In this document: positions 6,151 through 59,739 of the stretch, in pieces
How the letters are laid out: every line of letters begins with the position of its first letter
How positions within the stretch are numbered: the stretch's first letter is position 1
From: an uncultured Candidatus Peribacteria bacterium
GTDB lineage: Bacteria; Patescibacteriota; Gracilibacteria; Peribacterales; Peribacteraceae
DNA length: 60,071 nt
NCBI GenBank assembly: GCA_964515645.1
Contig: CAZEVM010000001.1
Span: 1-60,071 of the forward strand
Reading direction: 5' to 3'
The notes under the pieces: model-generated
What the model saw: the letters and a program-made list of their open reading frames with translations, nothing else
Database searches by the model: none
Told to the model about the DNA's origin: nothing
Program-made: the position numbers and the translations under genes

Positions 6151-6699
6151 ATGTTCACTGAAATTCCCTTAGTTTACCTGCCGTATGGCAAGGTCGGCAT
6201 TCTCTCCGATGTCCACGATCATCTGACAAACCTGCGCAAAGTTCTTCAAATCGCGACGGAAAGCGGGATCGATACTCTCCTGTTCGCCGGCGACTTCTGC
6301 TCGCCAATCCCGGTCGCGGAGATGTTGAAGTTCCCCGGCTGCATTCATGCCGTGTGGGGCAACGGCGACGGCGATCGTGTGAAGATCCAGCAACTCGCCG
6401 ACGCCAGGCCCGGCATACTCTTTTTACACGGTGAGTTCGCTCACTTCCAGATGGGCGGCGCAAAAGGGCCGACGATCGCCATGACGCACTACTGGTTCTA
6501 CGCGCAAGCGTTGGCTAGAACCGGCGACTACGATCTGGTCGTTTCTGGCCATACACACGAGAGTCGGCTGATGATGTTCTGTGGGAAGATCTGCCTCAAC
6601 CCAGGCGAGGTCTATGACCTGAAGGGGGAGCCATCTTTTGCCATCTACGATCCATTGAAGCCCCTTGAGAGGCAGATCGAGTTCGTGAGACTGACCTGA
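6151..6699 (+). CDS. YfcE/MJ0936-type metallophosphoesterase
   Basis: ORF 6124..6699. ATG 6151 has a GAGG 6 nt upstream. Motifs SDVHD, AGDF, GNGDGD, GHTH. Confidence 0.8.
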   Translation: MFTEIPLVYLPYGKVGILSDVHDHLTNLRKVLQIATESGIDTLLFAGDFCSPIPVAEMLKFPGCIHAVWGNGDGDRVKIQQLADARPGILFLHGEFAHFQMGGAKGPTIAMTHYWFYAQALARTGDYDLVVSGHTHESRLMMFCGKICLNPGEVYDLKGEPSFAIYDPLKPLERQIEFVRLT

Positions 6700-6755
6700 T
6701 GTGACATCAGGGAATGATTGTATTCGTTTTCCTACCTCTTTATTTAGAGGCGGGA

Positions 6756-6781
6756 GGCCCCCCAATGGGGGGCTTTTTTTG
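6756..6781 (+). terminator. intrinsic terminator
   Basis: GGCCCCCC-AAT-GGGGGGC followed by T8. Confidence 0.75.
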
Positions 6782-6837
6782 AGTTTATTCAAAAATGGCT
6801 TTTTCGACGGTTCAGTCGATTCTAAAAAGTGCCACCC

Positions 6838-6866
6838 TTGACATGAAGTGGGTATTTCACTATCTA
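6838..6866 (+). promoter_or_regulatory. putative promoter of the GK-like gene pair
   Basis: TTGACA-17 nt-TATCTA. Confidence 0.4.
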
Positions 6867-6902
6867 CTCGCCTGATATTTCCAATTCCCCCTCCCCTTTC
6901 GT

Positions 6903-7757
6903 ATGAACCCTACACAAGAACCCCTGGTCCTGGGCTTCATGGGCCCTCCCGGCACCGGCAAGACCGTGGCCATGGAGATCGTCGAGTTTGAAGCCAACCG
7001 CCAGAAGACCGGCGAGACGCTCGGTCTCGGTCGTGCCCTCAACGTGGGTGTCGCCCGCAAGTCCACCTCGCGCCCCAGCCGCGGCGCCGACGACCGCCTC
7101 AAGGAGTCGGGTGTCGATGAGGCGGAGTTCGACAAACCAGAGATGATCGGCGTGTACACGCTGTCCAACAATGGCGCCAAGTACGCCTACCGCGAGTCGG
7201 CCCTCAAGGCCGAGGGCGTGGACGTGCTCATCGCCGAGCCCAGCTTGCACCACATCGAGGCCGTGAAGCTCCACCTCGGCGGCCGCCTCTTCACCATCTT
7301 CCTCGCCGCTTCCCGCGAGTACCGCCTGGCCCGCCTGAGCGGCCGCGGCACGGAGGATCCGGTGGAGGTCCGCAAGCGCGTGCTTGAGGGCGACGCCCAG
7401 ATCATCATCGCCTCCATGCTCGGCGCCGAGATCGCCCAGGGTGCCGACACCCTCACCGATCCGCTGATGGTTGAGATCTTCACGAAGATCCAGGACTCCG
7501 ACGACGATCTGGCTGTGGGGCAGCTGGCCCAGTACCTCGCCAACTACGCCGGCGGCGACGCCGAGGCGGCCAAGAAGTACGGCGAGTCGACGGCCAAGCT
7601 CTTCGCCCACGACATCCGCCACGTGCACGGCGGCCAGAAGGCCATCGAGCACGTTATTTCGCTCGATGATTCCTACCTCTCCAAGGACCCCAAGAACGAG
7701 GGCAAGTACCGCGAGGAGATCCTCGCTCAGCTTGTCCGCGGTTTGAAGGGCGCCTGA
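6903..7757 (+). CDS. guanylate-kinase-like P-loop protein with C-terminal extension (paralog A)
   Basis: ORF 6903..7757. GPPGTGKT, ARKSTSRPSRGADD (compare Gmk TTRxPRxGE), RLSGRGTEDPVEVRKRVLEGDAQ (compare Gmk RLxxRGtE...R), plus about 95 extra C-terminal residues. Confidence 0.75.
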   Translation: MNPTQEPLVLGFMGPPGTGKTVAMEIVEFEANRQKTGETLGLGRALNVGVARKSTSRPSRGADDRLKESGVDEAEFDKPEMIGVYTLSNNGAKYAYRESALKAEGVDVLIAEPSLHHIEAVKLHLGGRLFTIFLAASREYRLARLSGRGTEDPVEVRKRVLEGDAQIIIASMLGAEIAQGADTLTDPLMVEIFTKIQDSDDDLAVGQLAQYLANYAGGDAEAAKKYGESTAKLFAHDIRHVHGGQKAIEHVISLDDSYLSKDPKNEGKYREEILAQLVRGLKGA

Positions 7758-7791
7758 TTCTCATTCGCTAACCACTCTTCACCTCTTCTTT

Positions 7792-8685
7792 ATGTCTCAC
7801 TTGGAACGCTCCGATGACGATATCGTCATCAACACGCCGATTGTCGGCTTCATGGGCCCGCCCGGCAACGGCAAGTCCGTGGCCATCAACACTGTCGAGT
7901 ACGCGGACAACCGCGTCGAGATGGGTGAGCGCCTCAACCTCGGCCGCCCGCTGAATGTGGGCGTGGCCCGCAAGTCCACCTCGCGCGGCGGACGCGGCGC
8001 TGATGACCGCTTTAAGATCTCCGGCCTGCCGGAGTCAGCCTTCGACGATCCGAACATGATCGGTGTCTATCGCTTGTCCAATAACAACGCGCTCTACGGT
8101 TACCACGCCAACGATCTGCGCGCCTCGGAAGGCACAGACCTGCTCATCGCCGAGCCGAGCCTGCACCACATCACCGAGTTGAAGGACCGCATCCGCGGTC
8201 GCTTCCACGTGGTGTTCTTCGCTTCCGACCGCGCCTATCGCGACGCCCGCTTGAACGGCCGCGGCACCGAGGACCCGGTGGAGGTGAAGAAGCGCATCCT
8301 CGAGGGTGACGCTCAGATGATCATGGCCAACATGCTGGGTGCCCACATGGCCCGCGGCGTGGAGGAGCTGACCGATCCCGACATGGTGGCGCTCTTCGCC
8401 GCCGTTCGCTCGGCCAAGGATGATGCCGCCCGCGCCCAGGCTGAGGCAGAACTGAAGACGTACCTCGCTGCCTACGTCGGCGGCGATGCAGCCACGACCG
8501 AGAAGTATGCTACCTCGACCGCCAAGCTCTACGCCGGCGACGTTGCCCACCTCGAGGTCGGTGCCGACAAGTCGATCGACCACGTCATCACCTTCGATCC
8601 CTCCTACATCACGAAAAACCCGATGCAGGAAGGTAAGTTCCGCAAGGAGATCCTCGAGCAAGTCGAGGGCGTCCTCAGAAGCTGA
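7792..8685 (+). CDS. guanylate-kinase-like P-loop protein with C-terminal extension (paralog B)
   Basis: ORF 7792..8685. Colinear with 6903..7757 (GPPGNGKS, ARKSTSRGGRGADD, RLNGRGTEDPVEVKKRILEGDAQ), about half the residues identical by eye. Confidence 0.75.
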   Translation: MSHLERSDDDIVINTPIVGFMGPPGNGKSVAINTVEYADNRVEMGERLNLGRPLNVGVARKSTSRGGRGADDRFKISGLPESAFDDPNMIGVYRLSNNNALYGYHANDLRASEGTDLLIAEPSLHHITELKDRIRGRFHVVFFASDRAYRDARLNGRGTEDPVEVKKRILEGDAQMIMANMLGAHMARGVEELTDPDMVALFAAVRSAKDDAARAQAEAELKTYLAAYVGGDAATTEKYATSTAKLYAGDVAHLEVGADKSIDHVITFDPSYITKNPMQEGKFRKEILEQVEGVLRS

Positions 8686-8709
8686 GAGCGTTCCCCGTTG
8701 ACCGAAAAA

Positions 8710-8734
8710 AGCCGCCCGACCGGGGCGGCTTTTT
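8710..8734 (+). terminator. intrinsic terminator
   Basis: AGCCGCCC-GACCG-GGGCGGCT followed by TTTT. Confidence 0.75.
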
Positions 8735-8830
8735 CGTGGCGAGGGGTTTTTTGGCCAGAAAGCCACGTTGCTCTTGTATTTTCCTTATATTCAACGAATA
8801 ATGCCCGCGCACAATTTTCCTCTTTTCCTC

Positions 8831-11474
<2,644 letters not shown>

Positions 11475-28162: not shown

Positions 28163-28239
28163 GGGCCAGTAGCTCAGTTGGTTAGAGCTCCGGACTTATA
28201 CACCGGCGGTCGATGGTTCAACTCCATCCTGGCCCACCA
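28163..28239 (+). tRNA. tRNA-Ile (anticodon UAU)
   Basis: Manual cloverleaf: acceptor GGGCCAG/CUGGCCC, D-arm GCUC/GAGC, anticodon stem CCGG(A)/(A)CCGG with A31-A39 mismatch, loop CUUAUAC, T-arm GAUGG-UUCAACU-CCAUC, CCA encoded. Confidence 0.8.
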
Positions 28240-48937: not shown

Positions 48938-50299
48938 ATGTTCTTGGACGAAGCCATCATCGAGGTGAGCGCCGGAGACGGCGGACGGGGGTGTGTCGGC
49001 TGGCGTCGCGAGAAGTTCGAGCCCATGGGTGGCCCGGACGGCGGCGACGGTGGACGGGGTGGAAACGTGTTTTTCATCGCCAATCGCAACGCCGACACGC
49101 TGTCCGATTACGCGTCGCGGAAGAATTTTGAGGCGGCTCGCGGCGACTTCGGCTCCGGCCAGAACCGCGGCGGACGCGACGGCGAGGATCTGTTCCTCCC
49201 GGTCCCGCCCGGCACCATCATCCGCAAGCTCAACGACGACGGCACCAACGAGATCATCGCCGATCTGGAGCGTGACGGCGACCAGGTGTTGGCCGTTCGC
49301 GGCGGCCGCGGCGGCTACGGCAACGCTCACTTCCGCAGTTCCACCCGCCAAGCCCCCGACTTCGCCGAGCTCGGCGAGAAGGGCGAGAGCACCCGCATTC
49401 AACTCGAACTCCGCCTCGTCGCCGACGTGGGCATCATCGGCTTCCCGAACGTGGGCAAGTCGACGCTCATCTCGGTGGTGAGCAACGCCAAGCCGAAGAT
49501 CGCCAACTACCCCTTCACGACCCTGGTCCCCAACCTCGGCGTGGTGAAGGTGGGTGACCGCGCCTTCGTGCTCTGCGACATCCCAGGTCTCATCGAGGGC
49601 GCCAGCGAAGGACGAGGCTTGGGCCATGAGTTCCTCCGCCATGTGGAGCGCTGCGGCTTGTTGCTGCATGTCATCGATGTCAGCCGCGCTCTGCCGCCCG
49701 AGGGTGGCGAGGCCGATCCAGCCCTGCTCGTGGCTGATTACCGCACCATTCGCCAGGAATTGGAGAAGAGTTCGGCCACGCTCGCGGCCAAGAAAGAGCT
49801 CGTGGTGTTGAACAAGATCGACCTCATCCCCGACCAGCTCGACGCCATCCGCAGTGCCTTCAAGAAGGCGAAGATCGCCATCGACGCCGAGATCTCGGCG
49901 GCCACCACGATGGGTACCAAGGACCTCATGGACCGCCTGATGCCGGTGGTGCTCGCCGAGCGCCAGCGCATGCAAGACGAACAGGCGGCCGCGGCCGCTC
50001 CAGTGGTGCCGCGCGGTCCGGTGGTGCTCCGTCCGCACCTCGACGACACGCGCATGGGCGCCTATCGCATCGATGTCCGCGACGGCAACGTGCACGTCAC
50101 CGGCAAGCGCGTGGAGCAGTTCACGCAGATGACCGACTTCCAGAACCGCGGCGCCGTCGATCGCTTCCGCGACGTTATCGACCGCACGGGTCTGCGCCGC
50201 GCCATCAAGCGCGCCCGCCCCACGCCCGACTGCCAGGTGTTCATCGGCCAAATCGCCGTGGAGAAGTACCTGGCCGAGGGCGAGCTGATCTGGGAGTAA
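48938..50299 (+). CDS. obg: GTPase Obg/CgtA
   Basis: ORF 48938..50299. Gly-rich Obg fold GGRGG..., G1 GFPNVGKST, G3 DIPGLIEGA, G4 NKID, C-terminal OCT-like domain. TATACT ends 6 nt before the ATG. Confidence 0.95.
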   Translation: MFLDEAIIEVSAGDGGRGCVGWRREKFEPMGGPDGGDGGRGGNVFFIANRNADTLSDYASRKNFEAARGDFGSGQNRGGRDGEDLFLPVPPGTIIRKLNDDGTNEIIADLERDGDQVLAVRGGRGGYGNAHFRSSTRQAPDFAELGEKGESTRIQLELRLVADVGIIGFPNVGKSTLISVVSNAKPKIANYPFTTLVPNLGVVKVGDRAFVLCDIPGLIEGASEGRGLGHEFLRHVERCGLLLHVIDVSRALPPEGGEADPALLVADYRTIRQELEKSSATLAAKKELVVLNKIDLIPDQLDAIRSAFKKAKIAIDAEISAATTMGTKDLMDRLMPVVLAERQRMQDEQAAAAAPVVPRGPVVLRPHLDDTRMGAYRIDVRDGNVHVTGKRVEQFTQMTDFQNRGAVDRFRDVIDRTGLRRAIKRARPTPDCQVFIGQIAVEKYLAEGELIWE

Positions 50300-51080: not shown

Positions 51081-51113
51081 GAACCTCGCCATTCGTGGCG
51101 GGGTTCTTTTTTT
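51081..51113 (+). terminator. intrinsic terminator
   Basis: GAACCTCGCC-ATTCGT-GGCGGGGTTC followed by T7. Confidence 0.8.
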
Positions 51114-51129: not shown

Positions 51130-51163
51130 TGGTGGCCCCTGACAGGCTCAAATCGAACCAAAT
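51130..51163 (-). repeat. degenerate copy of the tRNA-Phe 3' end (remnant C, distal island junction)
   Basis: tggtggcccctgacaggctcaaatcgaaccaaat versus tRNA-Phe tggtggcccagatcgggatcgaaccgatg (56993-57021) and remnant A (54346-54378). Confidence 0.55.
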
Positions 51164-51239
51164 TATTGCAGAATGTATAAAGATGTATGAGGCCCTGAAG
51201 GCTCTCCAAGAGATCGAGAGTGTATTCCCACGACGATGA
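51132..51239 (+). CDS. small junction ORF (35 aa) starting inside tRNA remnant C
   Basis: GTG 51132. VAPDRLKSNQIIAECIKMYEALKALQEIESVFPRR aligns with the N-terminus of ORF 54348..54539, with mostly third-position and conservative differences. Confidence 0.35.
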   Translation: MAPDRLKSNQIIAECIKMYEALKALQEIESVFPRR

Positions 51240-51243
51240 AGTA

Positions 51244-51290
51244 TTGACTAAATTTGTAATAATGCTTATATATTAATGAGCACTGTGCTC
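51244..51290 (+). promoter_or_regulatory. sigma70-type promoter plus 13-bp palindrome
   Basis: TTGACT-17 nt-TATATA (51244-51272), followed by GAGCAC-T-GTGCTC (51278-51290). Confidence 0.5.
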
Positions 51291-51333
51291 TCTCACAACA
51301 ACTCGCGACGTCCTCAATAAGAAGGAGTATCTC

Positions 51334-51651
51334 ATGGAGCAATCTCCCGTCAGCCTACCGTCAGTTATTACTGATACACAGAAGCTCGCTACGCTAGAAG
51401 AACAGCCTCCATGCTTCAGTGTCGGACCTACTCCTACAGGCCGTGGAGAAACCGTCCTGACGTGCGTCTGGGCAACGGACAAAGTCGATTACGCGGGCAG
51501 GAAGGTTTATGCAGTCGCGAGCTATTCCATTCACACGAACGAGGAGGGACAGACGACAAAATCACACGTCTTCAAATTGCCTCAGCTGCCCATTGTTATG
51601 TACGGACTCCAAAAAGCCTTCGATCACCTGATGCAGCTTCGAGGAGAATGA
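51334..51651 (+). CDS. hypothetical protein (105 aa)
   Basis: ORF 51334..51651. AAGGAG SD, own promoter and terminator. No recognisable motif. Confidence 0.65.
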   Translation: MEQSPVSLPSVITDTQKLATLEEQPPCFSVGPTPTGRGETVLTCVWATDKVDYAGRKVYAVASYSIHTNEEGQTTKSHVFKLPQLPIVMYGLQKAFDHLMQLRGE

Positions 51652-51684
51652 CCAAGAGATTCCCTGCTCTGCTTCTGCAGACGA

Positions 51685-51713
51685 AAACCCCATCCTAGCC
51701 GATGGGGTTTTTC
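51685..51713 (+). terminator. intrinsic terminator
   Basis: AAACCCCATC-CTAGCC-GATGGGGTTT followed by TT. Confidence 0.8.
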
Positions 51714-51807
51714 ATTTTCAGAATGAGAAGCGCGCAGCGCTACGGAAGGCTATAAAACGCGAGGCGGTCTCCTTCCCCCAAGGCCGAGAGCGCGAGATAA
51801 CACCGGC

Positions 51808-51987
51808 ATGATCGATCTGCAGAAGTTCAGGGAGATACTGAAGAGGCCGGACCTCAGTGATGAGGAGGCGACCCGGATCCGTGATCTCTACTACAAGCTG
51901 GCGGACCTAGGGATAGAGGGTCACCGGTACGCGAAGTGGCTGAAGGCGGGAGGGAAAGGGTCGAAGCCGGATTTGAAGTGGTTTTAG
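51808..51987 (+). CDS. possible small ORF (59 aa, below ORF-track cutoff)
   Basis: Own translation: MIDLQKFREILKRPDLSDEEATRIRDLYYKLADLGIEGHRYAKWLKAGGKGSKPDLKWF. No SD seen. Confidence 0.3.
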   Translation: MIDLQKFREILKRPDLSDEEATRIRDLYYKLADLGIEGHRYAKWLKAGGKGSKPDLKWF

Positions 51988-52022
51988 TATTAATCAGGAA
52001 GCAATCTGTTTAAATTGATAGT

Positions 52023-52595
52023 ATGCCTAGACCACCAGGTGTAAGAGTAAAGGGTTATCTTAGAGAATTAAATATGTGCAGAAGGTTGTGGCAATCCTGG
52101 AATGATTATTTACCAAATGAAATTGACCCTAAACCGAGTAATCCAGCCATTAAATATAAAGTATTATTAGAAGAGATTAGATTTTCATTACTTTTTCGGA
52201 TTGTTGTGCGTTTATATGCCTTAATGGAGCCAGACGAGAATAAATTCACCTTTGGTTATTGGCTTAATACTCTAAATCAAACTCCAAAAGTTAAGGAGAC
52301 TCTAAAAAAATATAAGTTACTTTTAAAATCGGAAGATTTTAAAAAGGTACTTAAAAATCGGCACAACTCCTATGCTCATAACTCAATCAAGGACAAGCAT
52401 TTCGGTCAAACATATAAATCAATGTTTAAGCTAAATGAAGTAATTGAAGAGTTGTACGATCAAATCGTATCGGATGGGCAGGCTGAGGCCATTCCCTGGA
52501 GTGGTGCTGCAGACACACACGTTTGGCATCCCTCAAATTGCCCTGGGGGATTTGAAGAAAATGTGCGTGAGTTCTTTATAAAATTTAACAGCTAA
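52023..52595 (+). CDS. HEPN/Abi-like protein (tentative)
   Basis: ORF 52023..52595. Markedly AT-rich. Helical, with an R-x5-H motif NRHNSYAH reminiscent of Abi-type HEPN (R-x-x-x-x-A-H). Confidence 0.6.
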   Translation: MPRPPGVRVKGYLRELNMCRRLWQSWNDYLPNEIDPKPSNPAIKYKVLLEEIRFSLLFRIVVRLYALMEPDENKFTFGYWLNTLNQTPKVKETLKKYKLLLKSEDFKKVLKNRHNSYAHNSIKDKHFGQTYKSMFKLNEVIEELYDQIVSDGQAEAIPWSGAADTHVWHPSNCPGGFEENVREFFIKFNS

Positions 52596-52628
52596 GATTA
52601 GAGAAGACGCTTCACACCAGCAGCTTAA

Positions 52629-54218
52629 TTAAACAGGCCGCTTCCATCCCCATACAGAATCCCATGTATACCCACTACCCAGTCTTTCAAATTTGGCAGA
52701 CCAATTCAGCCATTCGTTAGCCTTCTTTGTAAATTCCTCAAAATCAGTCATCTCGAAAACTGTTAGCAATAGCTTTCTGTAATCATCATACCATTCCGCA
52801 TTTTGCATTAATGGGATAACTCGTTCTTCATAAAATCGCCCATAATTCGGATATACCCAATGAGGGGCTCCGGGTTTGCCTTCGTCTAATTCCTGCTTCA
52901 TTTTCATGCAAAACAGCATGTTTACCTGGCAGCTTAAGTTTAAGAATTCTTCGTCGTTCAAATTACCCATTATTTCTTTCACAAGAAGATCTTTCTCGTA
53001 ACTCTTCCGCAATCTGTTAAACATGGAATCTGCGCCATGCAAAACATCCGGTGCAAAGAATGCGGCTGTTGACCAAATTCGTGTGGGCCTACGCTGATTG
53101 CCGTCACGCAGTTCTGTTCTGTAATTAATCAAGAAAGACAGTATGTCTCCTTTTTTTTCCTTAAGGGCGAAGATGCAAAAATAGTAGTAGGGGTTGTGCA
53201 GTATTGCTCTCGGAATAGATTTCCACGGAACCATTCGCGATGACGGCGCATGCATCCATAGCGCAGCAACATCTGCGAACTTATCAAGAACCATTTTTAA
53301 GCCATCCTTCCTGTCATATCTCACTGCATACAAACCAATCATAGTCAGGTTCAACATCTCACGCTGCATTTGCTCCACAGCTTCTCCTGCGTTGCTAGCC
53401 TCAGGGCTTTCAGCGGCTATCTTGGTTTCCCAGGTTTGTTTTAGATGAGAGATCTCTCGTTCAACCATGTCTTCCAAATTAAAACGATCGGTATCCGAGA
53501 AACTTCGGAGTTTTGAGACGATCTCTTCCCGAGTTACTGGCGGACGAACCACTCCAGTATGCTTTAGCACTTCAACTGAGCGCGCAGTGTCTTGAGACAG
53601 CTGCTCGGCCGCAGCATCAACATCTTTGCCGTGGCTCTTTTCCTTCACAAGCTCCCAGAACGTTTCCGTGGCGCCGAGCATTTGGGACATTCCCAGCATG
53701 AGGGTTTGTGAGTCGCCCTCAGGCTTCTTTTTGTAATTGTATTTGTGGGACTGTACTGACCAGAGGTGTTCCGTCACGGTACGAATCTGAATCTCACACA
53801 TGTATTCGGCCCCTACGTCTGTGCTGCTCACGACGATGTGGTGCCCCGTGTAGCCGTCCATCGTATCCTCGGGTGTGCTCTCCACGATGCGATAGCTGCC
53901 CTCCAAAAATGGAAGGAGGAGCTCGATCGCGCGTTGGCGGTCAGATCTGCAGTGACAGATCACACGGACCCCGGCAATGTCTTTGATGTCCCTAATGTCG
54001 GAAGTGGCAACGTTCGCAACCTTGGCGTAAACGGACGGGAAGTCCTTAATTTGCGGACGCATCGCGACCAAATCCATACGGGCACTCACCCCGTCGATGT
54101 CGACGGAAAGACGATGCTCCTCTAGATGGGAGCGAATATCGGCCTCGACCTTGCTCTGCAGGGCCCGATAGGACTCTGCGTATTGATCGTATTGCCGTCG
54201 CGCGTCGGCCTCTGTCAT
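52629..54218 (-). CDS. RelA/SpoT-like nucleotidyltransferase (small-alarmone-synthetase/toxSAS-like) fused to ~340-aa unknown C-terminal domain
   Basis: ORF 52629..54218. RPQIKDFPSVYAKV, DIAGVRVICH, DGYTGHHIVV and EIQIRTVTEHLW are the RelA_SpoT synthetase core motifs within the first ~190 aa. Confidence 0.8.
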   Translation of the reverse strand: MTEADARRQYDQYAESYRALQSKVEADIRSHLEEHRLSVDIDGVSARMDLVAMRPQIKDFPSVYAKVANVATSDIRDIKDIAGVRVICHCRSDRQRAIELLLPFLEGSYRIVESTPEDTMDGYTGHHIVVSSTDVGAEYMCEIQIRTVTEHLWSVQSHKYNYKKKPEGDSQTLMLGMSQMLGATETFWELVKEKSHGKDVDAAAEQLSQDTARSVEVLKHTGVVRPPVTREEIVSKLRSFSDTDRFNLEDMVEREISHLKQTWETKIAAESPEASNAGEAVEQMQREMLNLTMIGLYAVRYDRKDGLKMVLDKFADVAALWMHAPSSRMVPWKSIPRAILHNPYYYFCIFALKEKKGDILSFLINYRTELRDGNQRRPTRIWSTAAFFAPDVLHGADSMFNRLRKSYEKDLLVKEIMGNLNDEEFLNLSCQVNMLFCMKMKQELDEGKPGAPHWVYPNYGRFYEERVIPLMQNAEWYDDYRKLLLTVFEMTDFEEFTKKANEWLNWSAKFERLGSGYTWDSVWGWKRPV

Positions 54219-54270
54219 CTGAAGAAGAAGCTACACCACTAATAAGGATGCTGTCACCCCTCCAACGGGA

Positions 54271-54378
54271 AGGTCTCTTCCTAGATCCCCTCTTGCGTCC
54301 GCAGTAGGGTGAAAACGTACCATGTGGGATTCGTTTGTTTTTAGCTGGTGGCCCCAGTCGGGACCAATACGAACCAAT
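54271..54378 (-). repeat. copy of the 75-nt tRNA-Phe-proximal arm plus degenerate tRNA-Phe 3' end (remnant A)
   Basis: 54271-54345 aligns with 56917-56992 (about four fifths identical by eye). 54346-54378 tggtggccccagtcgggaccaatacgaaccaat aligns with the tRNA-Phe 3' end. Confidence 0.65.
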
Positions 54379-54539
54379 TATTATCTGCCTTTGTCAAAAT
54401 GCACAACGACCTTCGTGCGATTGAAGAGATCGTCGGCGTCTGGATCGGTCCAGACGGTCGGCTCATGATTACGGAAATCCACACCTACGGAGGTGACGGG
54501 CCCGAGGGTCGCCGAGATGCCGATAATGGCAAGGCGTGA
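54348..54539 (+). CDS. small junction ORF (63 aa) starting inside tRNA remnant A
   Basis: ORF 54348..54539 (GTG). N-terminus VAPVGTNTNQLLSAFVKMHNDLRAIEEIVGV is homologous to the 51132 ORF. It competes with antisense ORF 54381..54569. Confidence 0.4.
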   Translation: MAPVGTNTNQLLSAFVKMHNDLRAIEEIVGVWIGPDGRLMITEIHTYGGDGPEGRRDADNGKA

Positions 54540-54611
54540 CGCATAGCCCGACTCTACGGGCAAATGCAAGCGTGTCGTGGCATGAGCGTGCCAGGTGGAA
54601 AGTGTTGACGT

Positions 54612-56828
54612 TTATTTACTAGTCATTCCAGCCTGAACCTTTGAAAAAATAGATTGGCAGCGTGCTTGCCATTCAGTATTCCATTTTGTTCTGACTGGAT
54701 TTATAAGTTCTCTAAGATGATTCTTCTGTTTATCGTCAATTTTGCTAAATACCTCTGGACACTCGTCAAAGATTTCATCTAATGACTGAAGTACTTTTTC
54801 TCCTTGCTCAGAGTTTTTCACCCTGTCCATCTCTTGGAGCAATTTCACATAAACGTTGTAGATAAGATTTTGAAATTTACGGTCGTATAAATATTCTTTT
54901 AGCAGCAATAAAGCTGGTACAAATTCTTTGTGATTATCAACAGAAATGTGCCCAATAAATCTACTCAGTGCATCATCGTTTAGGAAAGTAGCTTGCTTTT
55001 CTTTATCTGAAAGAAGAGATATTATTTTTGGTTTGCAAACGAAGTGTTGCTGAATTGCCTTAGCAATTTCTGTTTTTTGATTAGCTGAAAATAGTTGAGG
55101 ATGAGACACAATGTTACTAAAAACACTCACAGCATGGACTTCGTTTCCCACTGTCTCTTGCCCAATTGTCGCCAAGGTATAGCGCTCTGCGAGTTTCTGC
55201 CTTAGGTGAGTATCTAATAGTCGATTATTTAAGACTCTGAAAATTAGCGTTTGGTCCAGAAGCTTGTAATTATCCCAAAGATACTCATCTAATGCATAAG
55301 CAATTGAGTTGTAAAAGTCCTTCTTGCTCGGCTCGAATTCCAATCTATTGAATGAGCCTAATAAAGTTTGAATTAGAGTCGTACAATTCTTCCTTTGAGT
55401 TTTATAAGCCTCAATCAAAGCTGTTGCATATTCAACAACAGCTTCTTTTTTCTTTTCTTTTTTCACTAATTCAATGGATGTCTCTAATTCACCTGTAATT
55501 AATGCAGTACGTAGTTCGTTTTCATGTTTTAAGCCCTTAGCCAGAATAGGCTTTTTAAAGTAAAGATATGTTTCGGCATCTGCCGTTGTAATACGACTTG
55601 TAAGTAACATGAACCTTTTAAAATCTTTTGAGCTTTTTATGGTCTCGATACTTTCGGGGGCGAACCAGTTTTCTTTTAACTCAGCATACTCTTTAGGGAA
55701 TTTATCTCTGAGTACCAGGATCTTTGCCAAGTAGGCGGGATTGTCCTTTATTATTGCAGCAACCTCGGTGTTCAGAGCTATAACAAGCGATGCAATAAAA
55801 TTATTAATGAATTGTTTTATCTCTCTTGGGTTATCAACAAAAGAGCTTTTGATAACTAAAATGACATCTTCATTATTAATTAACTTGTTAATTTCCCCAG
55901 TTTTTTCCAAAAGACTTTCAATGTATTTGTCCAAGTCGGTGTTGATAAATTCAGGTGACCAAATAGCTAGATTAAAAATCTTCCTCAAATACTCGGACGG
56001 GTTCATTGTGTCTATCAGGGTTTGCCTAAGCATTTCGTAGTGGCAAGGAACGAGGAAAATTATTTTTTTGTCTTCCATTCCATCTGTGTTGATTTCTAGA
56101 AAAGTTTTTAAAGTCGAAAGCATCTCGATCGCTACTTCACGCTCAACTCGGTCTAGGTTATCGACCACAATTATTACCTTACTCTCTCCCGAGTCGTTAA
56201 TTATTTTTGAAAAACATTCTTCGAAGAGTTCTGGTGAATCAATTTTATTCTTTGTGCCGTTAATCGCTGTGATAGATATAAAGTTTTTTGCATCGTCAGG
56301 GAGCAGTAGCTCCCTCGCAACGAAGCCAATTGCTGCTAAGAGAAATAATATTATTGATGCCGTGGTCCATTCGGGCATAAAAGTCCGAACAGCCATCCAT
56401 AACAACAATGTAATTGGGAGAAACAATTGTAACTTTAAAACACTCCACCGAATTTGAGGGCGCTCACCAATTTGTTCTGTGGTGTCGTAGTAAAATTGCT
56501 GTATTAGTTTATTAAGATAGCCCTTTCCAAGGTTTAAGTCTTTCGCTATCTGCATTAGAAGTTGCCTCTGTAATGAATCTTTCTGATACTTCCAGCAATC
56601 AAATTCAACCATCTTTGCGTTTGATATTCCCTCGTCCTTTAGCGCCTTTATGATTGTACTTTTCCCCGTTCCCCATGCGCCAAATAGGCCAATGGTATGA
56701 ACGCAACTTTCATTCTCCAAAATTGATTTAATCGAAGGAGCAATATGTTTGTGATAGAAGTCAAAATACCCATCGTCTGTGGAACGAATAGGAGCGTCTC
56801 TTAGAAATTTAAAGTCGGGCGGCGACAT
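54612..56828 (-). CDS. KAP-family P-loop NTPase with two inserted TM helices
   Basis: ORF 54612..56828. Walker A GAWGTGKST, TM pair LQLFLPITLLLWMAV / IILFLLAAIGFVA, Walker B IIVVDNLDR. AT-rich. Confidence 0.85.
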   Translation of the reverse strand: MSPPDFKFLRDAPIRSTDDGYFDFYHKHIAPSIKSILENESCVHTIGLFGAWGTGKSTIIKALKDEGISNAKMVEFDCWKYQKDSLQRQLLMQIAKDLNLGKGYLNKLIQQFYYDTTEQIGERPQIRWSVLKLQLFLPITLLLWMAVRTFMPEWTTASIILFLLAAIGFVARELLLPDDAKNFISITAINGTKNKIDSPELFEECFSKIINDSGESKVIIVVDNLDRVEREVAIEMLSTLKTFLEINTDGMEDKKIIFLVPCHYEMLRQTLIDTMNPSEYLRKIFNLAIWSPEFINTDLDKYIESLLEKTGEINKLINNEDVILVIKSSFVDNPREIKQFINNFIASLVIALNTEVAAIIKDNPAYLAKILVLRDKFPKEYAELKENWFAPESIETIKSSKDFKRFMLLTSRITTADAETYLYFKKPILAKGLKHENELRTALITGELETSIELVKKEKKKEAVVEYATALIEAYKTQRKNCTTLIQTLLGSFNRLEFEPSKKDFYNSIAYALDEYLWDNYKLLDQTLIFRVLNNRLLDTHLRQKLAERYTLATIGQETVGNEVHAVSVFSNIVSHPQLFSANQKTEIAKAIQQHFVCKPKIISLLSDKEKQATFLNDDALSRFIGHISVDNHKEFVPALLLLKEYLYDRKFQNLIYNVYVKLLQEMDRVKNSEQGEKVLQSLDEIFDECPEVFSKIDDKQKNHLRELINPVRTKWNTEWQARCQSIFSKVQAGMTSK

Positions 56829-56916
56829 GACAAGAAAAGTTTATACCTCTTCTCTGAAATTCAAAAAACTGCCGCCAATTAGAAGTCCTTCGATAAACTA
56901 ACCCTGCCCACTGGCC

Positions 56917-56992
56917 GGTCTCTTCCTTGTTCCCTCTTGCGCTCGTAGTAGGGTAAAAACGTACAATGTGGGATACGTTTGCGATTTTTAGC
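56917..56992 (-). repeat. 75-nt arm immediately 3' of tRNA-Phe (includes tRNA terminator hairpin)
   Basis: The minus strand reads ...GCAAACGTA-TCCCACATTG-TACGTTTTTAC.... Duplicated at 54271-54345. Confidence 0.65.
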
Positions 56993-57068
56993 TGGTGGCC
57001 CAGATCGGGATCGAACCGATGACACCTCCCTCTTCAGGGGAGTGCTCTACCAGCTGAGCTACCGGGCC
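56993..57068 (-). tRNA. tRNA-Phe (anticodon GAA)
   Basis: Manual cloverleaf of GGCCCGGUAGCUCAGCUGGUAGAGCACUCCCCUGAAGAGGGAGGUGUCAUCGGUUCGAUCCCGAUCUGGGCCACCA. Loop CUGAAGA, CCA encoded. Confidence 0.95.
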
Positions 57069-57392: not shown

Positions 57393-57444
57393 AAACATTA
57401 CACGTCGTTCGCACCATTCCTCTTTTATACAGTTGGAGGTCTCC

Positions 57445-57678
57445 GTGACGTCTACCATTTCCGATGAGCTGCGCGGGCTTATTGAAGCGTACCGCTCACA
57501 ACATCAAGGATCCGTTGCCGCCTGGAGTGACACGAGCGGTTCCATCACCGACAACGCCGCGCGAGTCGAGACATCCGACCGGCTGCACGCTCAAGCAGAA
57601 GGCACCATGCGACGTATCCGTGAATACTGCGACGAGCACTCGATCGGTCCGGAAATCATCGAAGAACTTCTGCGCTGA
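57445..57678 (+). CDS. hypothetical small protein (77 aa)
   Basis: GTG 57445 preceded by GGAGG, in frame with the tail of ORF 57079..57678 (which spans tRNA-Ala and cannot be real upstream). Own terminator. Confidence 0.6.
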   Translation: MTSTISDELRGLIEAYRSQHQGSVAAWSDTSGSITDNAARVETSDRLHAQAEGTMRRIREYCDEHSIGPEIIEELLR

Positions 57679-57697
57679 GAGCGCGGAGCCCACCACT

Positions 57698-57726
57698 AGG
57701 CGGAGAGCGATCTCCGCCTGTTTTTG
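57698..57726 (+). terminator. intrinsic terminator
   Basis: AGGCGGAGA-GCGA-TCTCCGCCT followed by GTTTTT. Confidence 0.8.
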
Positions 57727-57799
57727 AATATATAAAAGAAAGCGAGACGTGTTGTCCCGCTTTTCTCGCTGGTGAGTATTCACCTGTACCATTTTTCAT

Positions 57800-57829
57800 A
57801 AAAAGAGCCCCGGCTGTTGCCGAGGCTCT
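57800..57829 (-). terminator. intrinsic terminator of 57851..58480
   Basis: The minus strand reads AGAGCCTCGGC-AACA-GCCGGGGCTCT followed by TTTTT. Confidence 0.7.
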
Positions 57830-57850
57830 AGGAACGTATTGATCTGACTG

Positions 57851-58480
57851 TCATCCTCCGCGAACTCGTTTTTGCTCCTTGCGAATTGCTTTCAGTTTTT
57901 GACGCCATTGTTCGTTTTCAGACATTTTCTTCATGGCATCGCTCTTAAGACTAGGCACATGCTCGATGATGCATCGACAATCCACGTCACTCGGCTCTTG
58001 TGCGAATAAAACCGCTGCAGCCTGCAGTCTCATCTTCTTGTTTTGGGCTACAATGGTTCGAAGTACAGCATTAGGAAGCGATCCTTGAAGCAGTCGCTCG
58101 GCGGCCGTGTCGGCGATCTCTTCTTCGAAGTAACGAAACTCTTTCATTAAAAACACGAGATCATCGTACGTCGGCTGCTGCTCAAGTATTCGCAAGCCCG
58201 TTTTCTTCCGCCAGGCGGCATATGGTTGCTTTAATATTAAACGCAACTCATGGTTTCGAGGATTCCGAGCAAGGAGCATTTCAGCGGCTTTTTCGATGTG
58301 TGGCCCGCCATAATATTGCCGCAGTAACCAACACAAATCTTGGTTCGTTGGGTTACGCTGCAAGTACGCTTCAACCGCTTCGTGATGAAGGTAGTCGACG
58401 TAACGAATCACGTAGCGGATCGCGGATTGAGAAGGATTCTTAGATAAAATATCCGCCCACATGTTTTCGAGTTTCGACAT
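57851..58480 (-). CDS. helical-repeat (HEAT/ARM-like) protein, unknown function
   Basis: ORF 57851..58480. Repeated units LQRNPTNQDL..., LARNPRNHEL..., LEQQPTYDDL.... Lower GC than the flanks. AT-rich promoter patch at 58500-58569. Confidence 0.65.
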   Translation of the reverse strand: MSKLENMWADILSKNPSQSAIRYVIRYVDYLHHEAVEAYLQRNPTNQDLCWLLRQYYGGPHIEKAAEMLLARNPRNHELRLILKQPYAAWRKKTGLRILEQQPTYDDLVFLMKEFRYFEEEIADTAAERLLQGSLPNAVLRTIVAQNKKMRLQAAAVLFAQEPSDVDCRCIIEHVPSLKSDAMKKMSENEQWRQKLKAIRKEQKRVRGG

Positions 58481-58569
58481 TTCGACCTCATTTTTAGGGA
58501 AGTTGGAGTGAACGAACGCTATATTGACATTATAGTAAATTATTTAATAGTCAATATATTTTATGTGCG

Positions 58570-59739
58570 TTACAAACTGGCCCGGATCGCCTCCTCCAGC
58601 TTTCGGTTCTTCCAACCCACAAAGTGCAGCACAGCGTGCAGCGGATCGGTGAGTGCGAGGAACACCTTCAAGTCGGCAGCCAAGCGCATGGCGTATCCCA
58701 GCAAGCCGAAGACATTCAACGGACCGAAGACGACAGCCGCCCAGCGCTCGCCGATGGGCAGAGCGAATTTTGGCTTGGGTGCAGCGTAGGTGCGCGGCCG
58801 GCCGGAGAGGATCTTGGCCAAGAGATCGGCATCGTAGATGGCCGTCTGGGCCATGCCCGCATAGGGCGTCTTGGCACAGTCACCGAGGACGTACACGTTC
58901 TGCAGGCCCTGAGCGCGCAAATCGTTGTCCACTAAGGCGCGTCCCTTGGGGTCGAGCGACAAGCCGGTGACACGAGAAAGGAGCGAGTGGGCCTTCACGC
59001 CCGCGGTCCAGACGATGGTGCCGGCTTCAATTTGCGTATCGGCCAGAAGGAGCTTGCCCGGCTCACAGCCGGTGACCTTCTTGCCCACCATCACCTGCAC
59101 GCCGATCTTCTCGAGTCGCTCGTGCGAACGCTTGGAGACGATCTCCGGCATCGACGGGAGGATACGATCAGCCGCCTCAATGAGCAGAACGTGCGGCGGG
59201 CGCTTACGCAGGTCTTCCAAGTGCACCACCAGCTCGGCCGCCGTCTCCACGCCCGTCGGTCCGCCGCCGATCACGAGCACGCGCTCTGAGGTCTCCTTTT
59301 CGTGCTGCGGCAAGACGTGGTGGTTCGTCAGCAAGGCATCGAAGTGACGGCGCAGATGCACGGCCTCCACCACGTGGCTCATGGTGAGCGCGTTCTCCTT
59401 CATGCCCGGAATGCCGAAGTACGCCGGCTCCGCTCCGGGAGCGAGCACCACGATGTCGTAGGGGTAGGCACCCAGGCGGCCTTGGGCGACGTTCTTCGCC
59501 GTATCGACCGATTCGATGGTATCGATCATGGTCGTGACCGACCGCGGCAACATCTCCTCTAAGGTCAGGCAGACGCGCGAGAAGGCATCTGAGCGGATGA
59601 TGCGGTAGAGCGAGCCGTAGTACTCCAGCCACGGCCTGGGGCTGACCAACGTGACGGCAAAGTGGGCATTCTTCGCCAGGCGCTGGGCCAGGCGAACGCC
59701 CGCGAATCCCCCGCCGACGACAAGCACTTTTTGCGCCAT
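58570..59739 (-). CDS. ndh: type II NADH dehydrogenase (NDH-2)
   Basis: ORF 58570..59739. Two Rossmann motifs VVGGGFAG and VIGGGPTGVE. GDCA motif. Confidence 0.9.
   Translation of the reverse strand: MAQKVLVVGGGFAGVRLAQRLAKNAHFAVTLVSPRPWLEYYGSLYRIIRSDAFSRVCLTLEEMLPRSVTTMIDTIESVDTAKNVAQGRLGAYPYDIVVLAPGAEPAYFGIPGMKENALTMSHVVEAVHLRRHFDALLTNHHVLPQHEKETSERVLVIGGGPTGVETAAELVVHLEDLRKRPPHVLLIEAADRILPSMPEIVSKRSHERLEKIGVQVMVGKKVTGCEPGKLLLADTQIEAGTIVWTAGVKAHSLLSRVTGLSLDPKGRALVDNDLRAQGLQNVYVLGDCAKTPYAGMAQTAIYDADLLAKILSGRPRTYAAPKPKFALPIGERWAAVVFGPLNVFGLLGYAMRLAADLKVFLALTDPLHAVLHFVGWKNRKLEEAIRASL

Follow-up and report, generated by a model that had tools for sequence, protein, structure and literature searches.

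An alarmone-synthetase-like enzyme fused to a portable C-terminal module on a tRNA-Phe-linked islet of a Candidatus Peribacteria bacterium

What does a long C-terminal extension without a recognisable family do on a small alarmone synthetase that resides on mobile DNA? This question is raised by a gene in contig CAZEVM010000001.1 of an uncultured Candidatus Peribacteria bacterium (GenBank assembly GCA_964515645.1), of which we analysed positions 1 to 60,071, hereafter called the “window”. The gene (Table 1) encodes 529 residues, hereafter called the “window protein”, in which an N-terminal domain of the toxic small alarmone synthetase (toxSAS) type, the toxSYNTH domain, is joined through a variable linker to a helical module of ~285 residues. 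Relatives of this module follow several unrelated N-terminal domains, and also occur as separate genes downstream of their partners. The window protein is best read as a self-contained effector and regulator in one polypeptide, of the abortive-infection or fused toxin–antitoxin (TA) kind.

The synthetase domain and the C-terminal module

The catalytic domain consists of an N-terminal helix, a β-core and a long C-terminal helix closing on the conserved W188-E-L-V-K. In the Pfam scan, RelA_SpoT (PF04607) matched residues 57–165 with 52.6 bits (gathering cutoff, 27). The catalytic positions R47, K58, S62, K66, D80, R85, G122-Y123, H127, E142, Q144, R146 and Y162 are all intact in the alignments, with T147, H158 and K163 also in place, and the synthetase motifs R...K-x3-S-x3-K, D-x-x-G-x-R, G-Y-x3-H (the G-loop), E-x-Q-x-R-T and H-x3-Y-K are present. 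The counterparts of Y123, namely Y155 of the fused toxSAS CapRel and Y129 of the toxSAS Pag1B, are essential for catalysis (PMC9712102 and the PANGU preprint, bioRxiv 10.64898/2026.04.06.716658, respectively). The N-terminus of the window protein, MTEADARRQY, is also kept in P0002, a homologue with 58% identity. No HD, TGS or ACT domain was found, and no second Pfam or NCBIfam family was detected at E ≤ 0.1; in NCBIfam, the only similarity was to the YjbM-type GTP diphosphokinases, below the threshold. An initial annotation, made from the sequence without database searches, had recognised a complete RelA_SpoT core with four quoted motifs in an open reading frame (ORF) of this extent, and had assigned it the architecture of a small alarmone synthetase; these scans and alignments bear out both points.

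Which of the known synthetases does this domain resemble? Against the Protein Data Bank (PDB), the family profile matched RelP and RelQ with E values of ~1e-24, as compared to 5e-7 for CapRel (7ZTB) and 9e-5 for FaRel2. In the AlphaFold2 (AF2) model of the full-length protein (mean predicted local distance difference test score, pLDDT, 87; predicted template modelling score, pTM, 0.62), residues 1–195 mostly have pLDDT values of 84–96. A Foldseek search with this model gave RelQ and RelP as the best matches, with template modelling (TM) scores of 0.73–0.79 normalised to the target length (~0.78), and placed CapRel, FaRel2 and Tas1 far down the ranking. All of the matches are confined to the N-terminal domain. 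Moreover, the toxSYNTH domain of the window protein is acidic (net charge −7, pI 5.5), while residues 1–272 of CapRel, which modifies tRNA, are basic (net charge +10, pI 9.2); among the module-fused relatives the net charge ranges from −6 to +3, although it is a mere proxy for a tRNA-binding surface. The absence of a positive pocket has been used to predict that an enzyme makes alarmones and does not modify tRNA, and the synthesis of pppGpp by Pag1B was confirmed biochemically (bioRxiv 10.64898/2026.04.06.716658). Because both the acidic charge and the similarity to RelQ and RelP lean toward a nucleotide acceptor, the window protein more probably pyrophosphorylates a purine nucleotide, to (pp)pGpp or (pp)pApp, than the CCA end of tRNA, which the initial annotation had named as one of the possible targets.

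Next, we investigated the C-terminal ~334 residues, which yielded no match of their own in Pfam, NCBIfam, PHROGs or PADLOC. The linker has pLDDT values of 56–64 in the full-length model. When modelled alone, the module is predicted (pLDDT 90.9, pTM 0.92) to adopt a mostly α-helical fold with one β-hairpin. Foldseek found no match for this fold in the PDB (best E value, 0.24) or BFVD (best E value, 0.37), with TM scores below 0.3, and the sequence profile of the module retrieved just designed coiled-coil artefacts from the PDB. Trp, Tyr and Phe together account for 12% of the C-terminal part, and for 14.9% of residues 281–529; its pI is 8.3 for residues 281–529 and 6.1 for residues 196–529. The initial annotation had described this part as aromatic-rich, much longer than the regulators of the fused toxSAS forms, and without a recognisable motif. 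The composition and the length hold, and the domain and fold searches likewise matched no known domain; on the other hand, the module does have an annotated relative, as its homology to the C-terminal half of the PADLOC candidate PDC-S65 becomes visible through its own relatives.

The GC content within the toxSAS gene is ~54–56% in the synthetase part and ~40–45% in the module part. This gradient may have its origin in a fairly recent fusion or recombination of domains, or just in the amino-acid composition.

How widely is the module distributed? An exhaustive hidden Markov model (HMM) search with the C-terminal region, covering 1.84 billion representative proteins, retrieved 39 representative relatives. 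We base the family census on this search; a word-indexed search of 5.8 billion clusters returned P0002 as the sole full-length homologue, and the word-indexed search with the module profile returned 4 proteins only. The N-terminal partner of the module is RelA_SpoT in 9 relatives, Pkinase in 6 (plus fragments), SIR2_2 in 4, Peptidase_C14 (caspase) in 2 and a TIR-like domain in 1, and the module always occupies the extreme C-terminus of the fusions. The TIR-like case is the Methanobacterium protein P0038, recognised by the PADLOC TIR effector model at 1e-9; the module thus spans Archaea, the candidate phyla radiation (CPR) and Proteobacteria. Nevertheless, the family is sparse and patchy, with nearly all of its members in singleton clusters scattered over CPR bacteria, Gammaproteobacteria (among them the homologues of loci L003 and L006) and Archaea. 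Three of the six toxSAS-module genes that could be placed in genomes (those of this window and of loci L005 and L007) come from the Peribacteria/Peregrinibacteria lineage, which suggests that the toxSAS-module lineage circulates in CPR genomes. The CPR group is known for tiny genomes with few recognised defences. In sequenced phages and PLSDB plasmids, tblastn detected weak toxSYNTH matches only, and the module was not found; among the IMG/VR contigs, none of 28 toxSYNTH relatives carried the module, as judged by the pattern YPN[FY][GA]R[FY].

The Methanobacterium sp. protein (L012/L013, WP_292755652.1) has a TIR-like N-terminus of the nucleoside-deoxyribosyltransferase-like kind, and a small DUF2188 gene precedes its gene in both genomes. 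In addition, the toxSAS domains most similar to that of the window protein outside the module family belong to two metagenomic proteins of 477–478 residues, P0003 and P0005. Their C-terminus is a different domain of ~270 residues, without a Pfam match and unlike the module (hhalign probability 0.2%), and is a second uncharacterised regulator on the same enzyme lineage. The exchange of partners therefore happened on both sides.

The SIR2-fused form of the family corresponds to PDC-S65, an uncharacterised single-gene phage-defence candidate in PADLOC, as P0019 matches this profile end to end (2e-96). The window protein and PDC-S65 thus share the same C-terminal module of ~285 residues, while the N-terminal effector is RelA_SpoT in the former and SIR2 in the latter. 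The C-terminal half of the PDC-S65 profile (positions ~290–590) also matches RelA-fused (P0008 and P0002), caspase-fused, TIR-like and stand-alone modules; in P0002, it covers residues 198–468 at 7e-8. In total, the profile matches 24 of the 40 family members. Conversely, the SIR2-fused P0019 is found at 4e-15 by a module profile that combines the window protein and P0002. Our literature search found no mention of PDC-S65 or PDC-S33 by name, and four of eight other PDC/HEC candidate systems protected E. coli in one study (PMC12881386).

The module also exists apart from its partners. First, RelA_SpoT, which is fused to the module in nine relatives, is encoded separately in locus L002, where the gene of a 298-residue module (P0012) overlaps the upstream gene of a 207-residue toxSAS by 32 nt; the split point falls exactly in the variable linker. 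Second, a 303-residue module (P0033) follows a 260-residue kinase gene after 36 nt on 10 contigs, and this kinase and the kinase domain found in the fused proteins are orthologues (1e-90); P0028 belongs to a second kinase and module gene pair. Third, the gene of module P0029 overlaps that of a 435-residue protein by 4 nt on three contigs. The stand-alone modules of ~300 residues are therefore genuine proteins and not fragments. Since fused and split forms coexist, the module probably acts on its effector by a protein–protein interaction that tolerates gene fission. By analogy, the fusion and fission of one pair is the pattern seen in TA systems and in CapRel, where it sets the fused CapRel apart from the bicistronic toxSAS TA pairs.

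The operon of P0029 lies at positions 6697–8924 of locus L008 and recurs in L009 and L010. Its 435-residue upstream protein starts with a transmembrane helix, matches no family in Pfam or PADLOC, and may represent a sixth effector type.

The neighbours of the relatives vary from locus to locus, and are often mobile or defence-like. L004 has a LexA-fused N6/N4 methylase of the restriction–modification (RM) kind with a PD-(D/E)XK gene upstream and an NYN gene downstream; L003 has a phage gp3 packaging gene, L007 has genes for a Cro-like protein and a serine recombinase, and L005 has YaaC-like and C13-peptidase-like genes. In L008, TIR, AbiEii-like, ArdC and paired MutS_V genes lie beside the P0029 operon, and in L002 an HTH-PIN (VapC-like) pair adjoins the split toxSAS and module genes. 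No neighbour is conserved across the loci, and the window gene therefore appears to be a single-gene system.

Relation to CapRel, PANGU and stand-alone synthetases

The closest precedent for such an architecture is CapRel, and the window protein resembles CapRel-SJ46 (PDB 7ZTB) in several respects. Each is a single polypeptide that begins with a toxSYNTH pyrophosphokinase and ends with a regulatory domain, and each is carried on mobile DNA. The catalytic residues of the window protein and CapRel align (R47 with R79, R85 with R116 and Y123 with Y155). In contrast, the regulator of CapRel is a pseudo-zinc-finger of ~100 residues, as compared to the ~285-residue helical module. Furthermore, the sensor of CapRel is its least conserved region (PMC9712102), while the module is conserved like the enzyme. 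The PADLOC profile PDC-S33 separates the two. This profile represents the CapRel family, because CapRel-SJ46, taken from its phage genome, matches it end to end (7e-87; positions 4–342 of 349). The window protein matches positions 35–175, which is only the toxSYNTH part, and is therefore not a CapRel.

Type I PANGU combines a nucleoid-associated protein (NAP), Pag1A, with the GRel toxSAS Pag1B, and aborts infection by (pp)pGpp synthesis (bioRxiv 10.64898/2026.04.06.716658). In both Pag1B and the window protein, a toxSYNTH domain at the N-terminus is followed by a helical linker and a regulatory domain at the C-terminus, and neither has a positive tRNA pocket, as judged by net charge for the window protein. 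However, PANGU needs an adjacent activating YejK-like NAP, and no protein of this family was found among the neighbours of the window protein in the Pfam, NCBIfam and PADLOC scans. The C-terminal domain of Pag1B is an acidic DNA mimic, while the module is near-neutral (pI 6–8) and aromatic-rich, and the effector sets also differ. The missing NAP neighbour and the lack of acidity rule out PANGU membership.

The N-terminal helix and all of the catalytic motifs are common to the window protein and the RelQ and RelP structures (PDB 5DEC, 5DED, 6EWZ and 6FGK). Those enzymes of ~210 residues are stand-alone and chromosomally conserved, whereas the window protein is encoded on a horizontally acquired islet and has an extension of 334 residues and a 9-residue insertion in its R-x-K ATP motif. 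With regard to gene order, the split versions of the family, in which a toxSAS of ~200 residues is followed by an overlapping module gene, recall the bicistronic toxSAS TA pairs FaRel2/ATfaRel2 and PhRel2. The pairing of one regulatory domain with many unrelated toxic domains recalls the “hyperpromiscuous antitoxin domain” of Panacea. Nonetheless, the module has no similarity to the known toxSAS antitoxins or to Panacea/DUF4065, as no Pfam family matched it. Fused toxSAS proteins that combine effector and regulator are already known; what is new here is the regulator, which has no structural match and is unusually promiscuous.

Proposed mechanism and competing explanations

How might the window protein work? 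On balance, it is probably a nucleotide-pyrophosphorylating toxin that is autoinhibited in cis and that its module releases upon a conserved cue, leading to growth arrest. We infer the toxicity, the autoinhibition, the defence role and the substrate from sequence. We propose the following steps.

Restraint: The module would be a portable control domain that keeps the attached effector inactive by protein–protein contact, in cis when the two are fused and in trans when the module is encoded by the downstream gene.

Release: When the module meets its cue, the effector would be set free. What kind of cue could this be? Within the RelA-fused group, the mean pairwise identity is 35% for the module and 38% for the enzyme, as compared to 15% for the linker. 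Consistently, the divergence from P0002 at nonsynonymous sites (dN), which alone is usable for this gene pair since the synonymous sites are saturated, is 0.32 for the module and 0.30 for the enzyme. Across all of the effector classes, the best-conserved module positions are W263, P336, L363, Q431, N433, the loop of residues 456–462, R466, F488, F496, G514, W519 and S521. Given that its conservation equals that of the enzyme and that it contains the near-invariant polar residues R461, R466, Q431 and N433, the module may sense a conserved ligand or a conserved protein partner, and not a fast-evolving epitope of a phage protein.

Catalysis: The released toxSYNTH domain would act as the toxic effector by moving the β,γ-pyrophosphate of ATP onto the 3′-OH of the acceptor. 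The acceptor nucleotide would thereby be pyrophosphorylated to (pp)pGpp or (pp)pApp, with a drain on ATP.

How could the module silence the synthetase? The most conserved motif of the module offers a testable lead. In the neutralisation element of CapRel-SJ46 (A351-Y352-P-N-Y355, followed by FGSTNQFGRF), the hinge between two C-terminal helices becomes a 3-10 helix that intercalates between R79 and R116, and either Y352A or Y355A alone causes constitutive toxicity (PMC9712102). The window protein has the same tetrapeptide, YPNY, at residues 456–459, followed by GRF. As in the validated autoinhibitory plug of CapRel, this element lies near the C-terminus between two helices; in our model, residues 456–462 are predicted to form a loop and a four-residue helix flanked by two long helices. 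The loop reads Y-P-N-[FY]-[GA]-R-[FY] in all of the toxSAS-linked modules and [YWF]-[PA]-[ND]-[FY]-G-R-[FYW] across the effector classes, where R461 is conserved in 96% and an aromatic residue at position 459 in 100%. In shuffled CapRel sequences, the strict motif occurred 0 times in 200,000, and a relaxed form 66 times in 200,000. Modelled on the insertion of Y352-P-N-Y355 between R79 and R116 in CapRel, we propose that Y456-P-N-Y459-G-R461-F may insert between the adenine-stacking arginines R47 and R85 and block ATP binding. By this analogy, the plug is a lead to be tested, and not evidence of CapRel membership.

The preferred reading is supported by the company that the module keeps. The SIR2, TIR-like, caspase, kinase and RelA_SpoT N-termini are, by analogy, the types typical of cell-suicide immunity, and the mobile and defence-like contexts of the window gene and of its relatives support a role in defence. 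The initial annotation had suggested a new fused toxin and sensor; a fused toxin and regulator remains the best reading, and the sensing of a phage protein is somewhat disfavoured because the module is conserved like the catalytic domain.

Several observations weigh against the preferred reading or against the plug. In the window protein and P0002, nine additional residues separate R47 from K58 in the ATP-binding motif, where seven other relatives read the canonical R-[VI]-K. The full-length model leaves the geometry between the domains uncertain, with a pTM of 0.62 as compared to 0.92 for the module alone. With respect to the plug, the YPNY match to CapRel was spotted post hoc and sits in a non-homologous domain, as hhalign detected no homology between the module and CapRel (probability 0.2%); moreover, the loop is equally conserved in the caspase-fused modules, which have no adenine site to be plugged. 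The window module itself falls below the HMMER reporting filters for the PDC-S65 HMM, and its link to PDC-S65 runs via P0002 and the exhaustive profile search. As to function, the genes of the kinase-fused P0025 and of the archaeal P0038 stand alone amid mostly housekeeping genes. The module also lacks the variability expected of an arms race, so that there is little to favour a direct, CapRel-like sensor of phage proteins, and a regulatory role outside immunity is still conceivable.

Such a role is the substance of the alternative that survives best, which we nevertheless consider unlikely. The window protein would be a physiological (p)ppGpp synthetase of the RelQ/RelP kind, its module would be a conventional domain that binds a ligand or a partner and thereby tunes stress signalling, and the kinases, SIR2 enzymes and other partners would use the module for non-immune regulation. 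The acidic synthetase, closest in both sequence and structure to the housekeeping RelQ and RelP, is consistent with this proposal, as are the enzyme-like conservation of the module, its conserved polar residues, which suggest a defined ligand, and the relatives that lie amid housekeeping genes. It does not account well for the position of the gene on a low-GC islet at tRNA-Phe, outside the core genome, or for a family so sparse and patchy that 1.84 billion proteins contain 39 representatives. Furthermore, SIR2, TIR-like, caspase and PD-T4-6-like kinase N-termini form a classic set of suicide effectors, and the SIR2 form is a defence candidate in PADLOC.

Could the cue be a signalling molecule made by another enzyme? 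SAVED, CARF and SLOG domains gate TIR, SIR2 and caspase effectors in cyclic-oligonucleotide-based antiphage signalling systems (CBASS), type III CRISPR and Thoeris, and the module would likewise be a receptor for a small molecule from a sensor enzyme encoded elsewhere. The effector repertoire overlaps that of the signal-gated effectors, a binding site for phosphate or a nucleotide could be built from the near-invariant R461 and R466 with Q431 and N433, and the lack of hypervariability suits a small-molecule ligand. However, no cyclase, TIR-type signal generator or conserved partner gene stands beside any of the loci that we examined, the split operons pair the module with an effector and not with a signal generator, and the mainly α-helical fold matches no known sensor domain in the PDB. 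We regard this alternative as quite improbable.

A third possibility, that the protein is a fused TA addiction element selected for the stabilisation of its islet and not for phage defence, overlaps mechanistically with the preferred reading and is less likely still. The islet has no integrase and has decayed in place, the fused and split forms resemble the TA architecture, and the split pair of L002 lies beside an HTH-PIN (VapC-like) pair. Nonetheless, one polypeptide could bring about post-segregational killing by differential stability only with a selective degradation of the module, and the HEPN_AbiU2 and KAP genes here, together with the RM, NYN, TIR and AbiE genes elsewhere, point to defence islands. 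Finally, a two-gene system, in which the toxSAS works with the neighbouring HEPN_AbiU2-like gene, as the initial annotation had suggested, or with the KAP NTPase gene, is very improbable and largely refuted: these genes are close (33 bp between the HEPN and toxSAS stop codons; KAP co-directional, 393 bp upstream), but the HEPN gene is convergent, the KAP gene sits inside its own att-like repeats, and tblastn with the HEPN, KAP and small-ORF proteins found nothing in seven other loci encoding relatives, where the neighbours are unrelated.

Beyond the preferred reading of an autoinhibited toxin, a bolder generalisation can be formulated, which we offer as a speculation and consider unlikely. The module may be a universal “safety-catch” domain of a new fold that, fused to them or as a separate subunit, silences at least five unrelated suicide enzymes by placing its conserved aromatic-x-[N/D]-aromatic-G-R-aromatic loop in their active or nucleotide site, with the YXXY device of CapRel evolved independently and with a conserved cue, in place of a variable phage protein, releasing the effector. 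If this is true, the module would be a Panacea-like portable regulator of immune effectors across Bacteria, CPR and Archaea. Fused toxSAS immunity has so far comprised CapRel and, lately, the NAP-activated GRel of PANGU, and this locus would add a third mode of control. Learning how a single module controls effectors of unrelated chemistry, and upon which cue, could reveal a new regulatory principle in prokaryotic immunity, and the anonymous candidate PDC-S65 would become a defined family.

The tandem islets at tRNA-Phe

How did the gene arrive at its present position? It lies in a low-GC segment (~51.0–57.0 kb, 35–55% GC) against a background of 62–67% and a host value of ~64%, next to an intact tRNA-Phe gene (Table 1). 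Three nested copies of the 3′ end of this tRNA are present, and the island therefore consists of two tandem islets. The direct repeats D1–D3 at the middle remnant are 76–88% identical to positions 56901–57019, and the flank is duplicated with the two proximal copies only. Islet A (~51161–54337) contains two small ORFs, the HEPN_AbiU2-like gene and the toxSAS-module gene, and islet B (~54373–56984) contains the KAP NTPase gene only. No integrase was found among the island ORFs checked. The initial annotation had placed the gene in an integrase-less islet at tRNA-Phe, convergent with a HEPN/Abi-like gene and near a KAP NTPase islet; this description stands, and the picture of a single island is refined to two islets, each bounded by a degenerate tRNA-Phe 3′ end copy.

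Table 1. Features of the toxSAS-module gene and its surroundings (coordinates refer to the window)
Feature	Position	Strand	Basis or remark
toxSAS-module fusion gene, complete, 529 aa plus stop	52629..54218	-	listed ORF
toxSYNTH / small alarmone synthetase domain, aa 1-195	53634..54218	-	PF04607, PDB profile, Foldseek
Y123 codon, G-loop tyrosine	53850..53852	-	invariant in three alignments
Acidic helical linker, poorly conserved, aa 196-245	53484..53633	-	15% mean pairwise identity
C-terminal regulatory module (PDC-S65 C-terminal type), aa 246-529	52632..53483	-	profile relatives, AF2 model
Y-P-N-Y-G-R-F motif, aa 456-462	52833..52853	-	most conserved module motif; candidate plug or ligand site
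Intact tRNA-Phe (GAA), integration target, 3′ end facing the islets	56993..57068	-	ARAGORN, repeats
Middle att-like remnant: tRNA-Phe 3′ end copy (54338-54372) plus ~80 bp flank	54256..54372		direct repeats
Distal, most degenerate tRNA-Phe 3′ end copy, outer edge of islet A	51131..51160		three-way alignment
Strong terminator of the last host gene	51081..51106		terminator scan; just outside the distal tRNA-Phe copy
HEPN_AbiU2-like gene, 190 aa, neighbour only	52023..52595	+	PF18734 28.1 bits, cutoff 26.8
KAP-family P-loop NTPase gene, 738 aa, neighbour only, sole cargo of islet B	54612..56828	-	PF07693 91.9 bits

Apart from the terminator listed in Table 1, the promoter and terminator scan gave no more sites than expected by chance.

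The two larger neighbours were considered as partners of the window protein, and were rejected on the basis of the tblastn searches, the gene orientation and the anatomy of the att-like (attachment-site-like) repeats. The HEPN_AbiU2-like product has an Rx5H motif (R113–H119); as its gene is convergent with the toxSAS gene, the two are not co-transcribed, and the HEPN_AbiU2-like gene has the appearance of an Abi-type gene in its own right. The KAP gene has att-like repeats of its own on either side, and thus arrived separately. Its product resembles QatA and PifA only in the N-terminal ATPase region, according to partial PADLOC and NCBIfam matches.

Some minor observations concern the surroundings. 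The HEPN_AbiU2-like gene has the lowest GC content in islet A (~34–39%). The C-terminal ~400 residues of the KAP NTPase have no family assignment. The island is flanked by the gene of an Obg GTPase with 78% identity to a Candidatus Peribacteraceae Obg, which places the high-GC host among the CPR (Peregrinibacteria) bacteria; positions 48938–50299 and the window as a whole agree with this assignment. Past tRNA-Phe and tRNA-Ala, a further stretch of lower GC content (~48–52%) extends over ~57400–58750 and may be another islet, at tRNA-Ala. It includes an ORF at 57851–58480 on the minus strand, whose 209-residue product has internal repeats (e.g. RNPTNQDLCWLLRQ and RNPRNHELRLILKQ) and no solid family match. 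Elsewhere in the window, a tRNA-Ile gene with the anticodon TAT (UAU) is located at 28163–28239 on the plus strand; the UAU anticodon is an uncommon bacterial route to decoding AUA.

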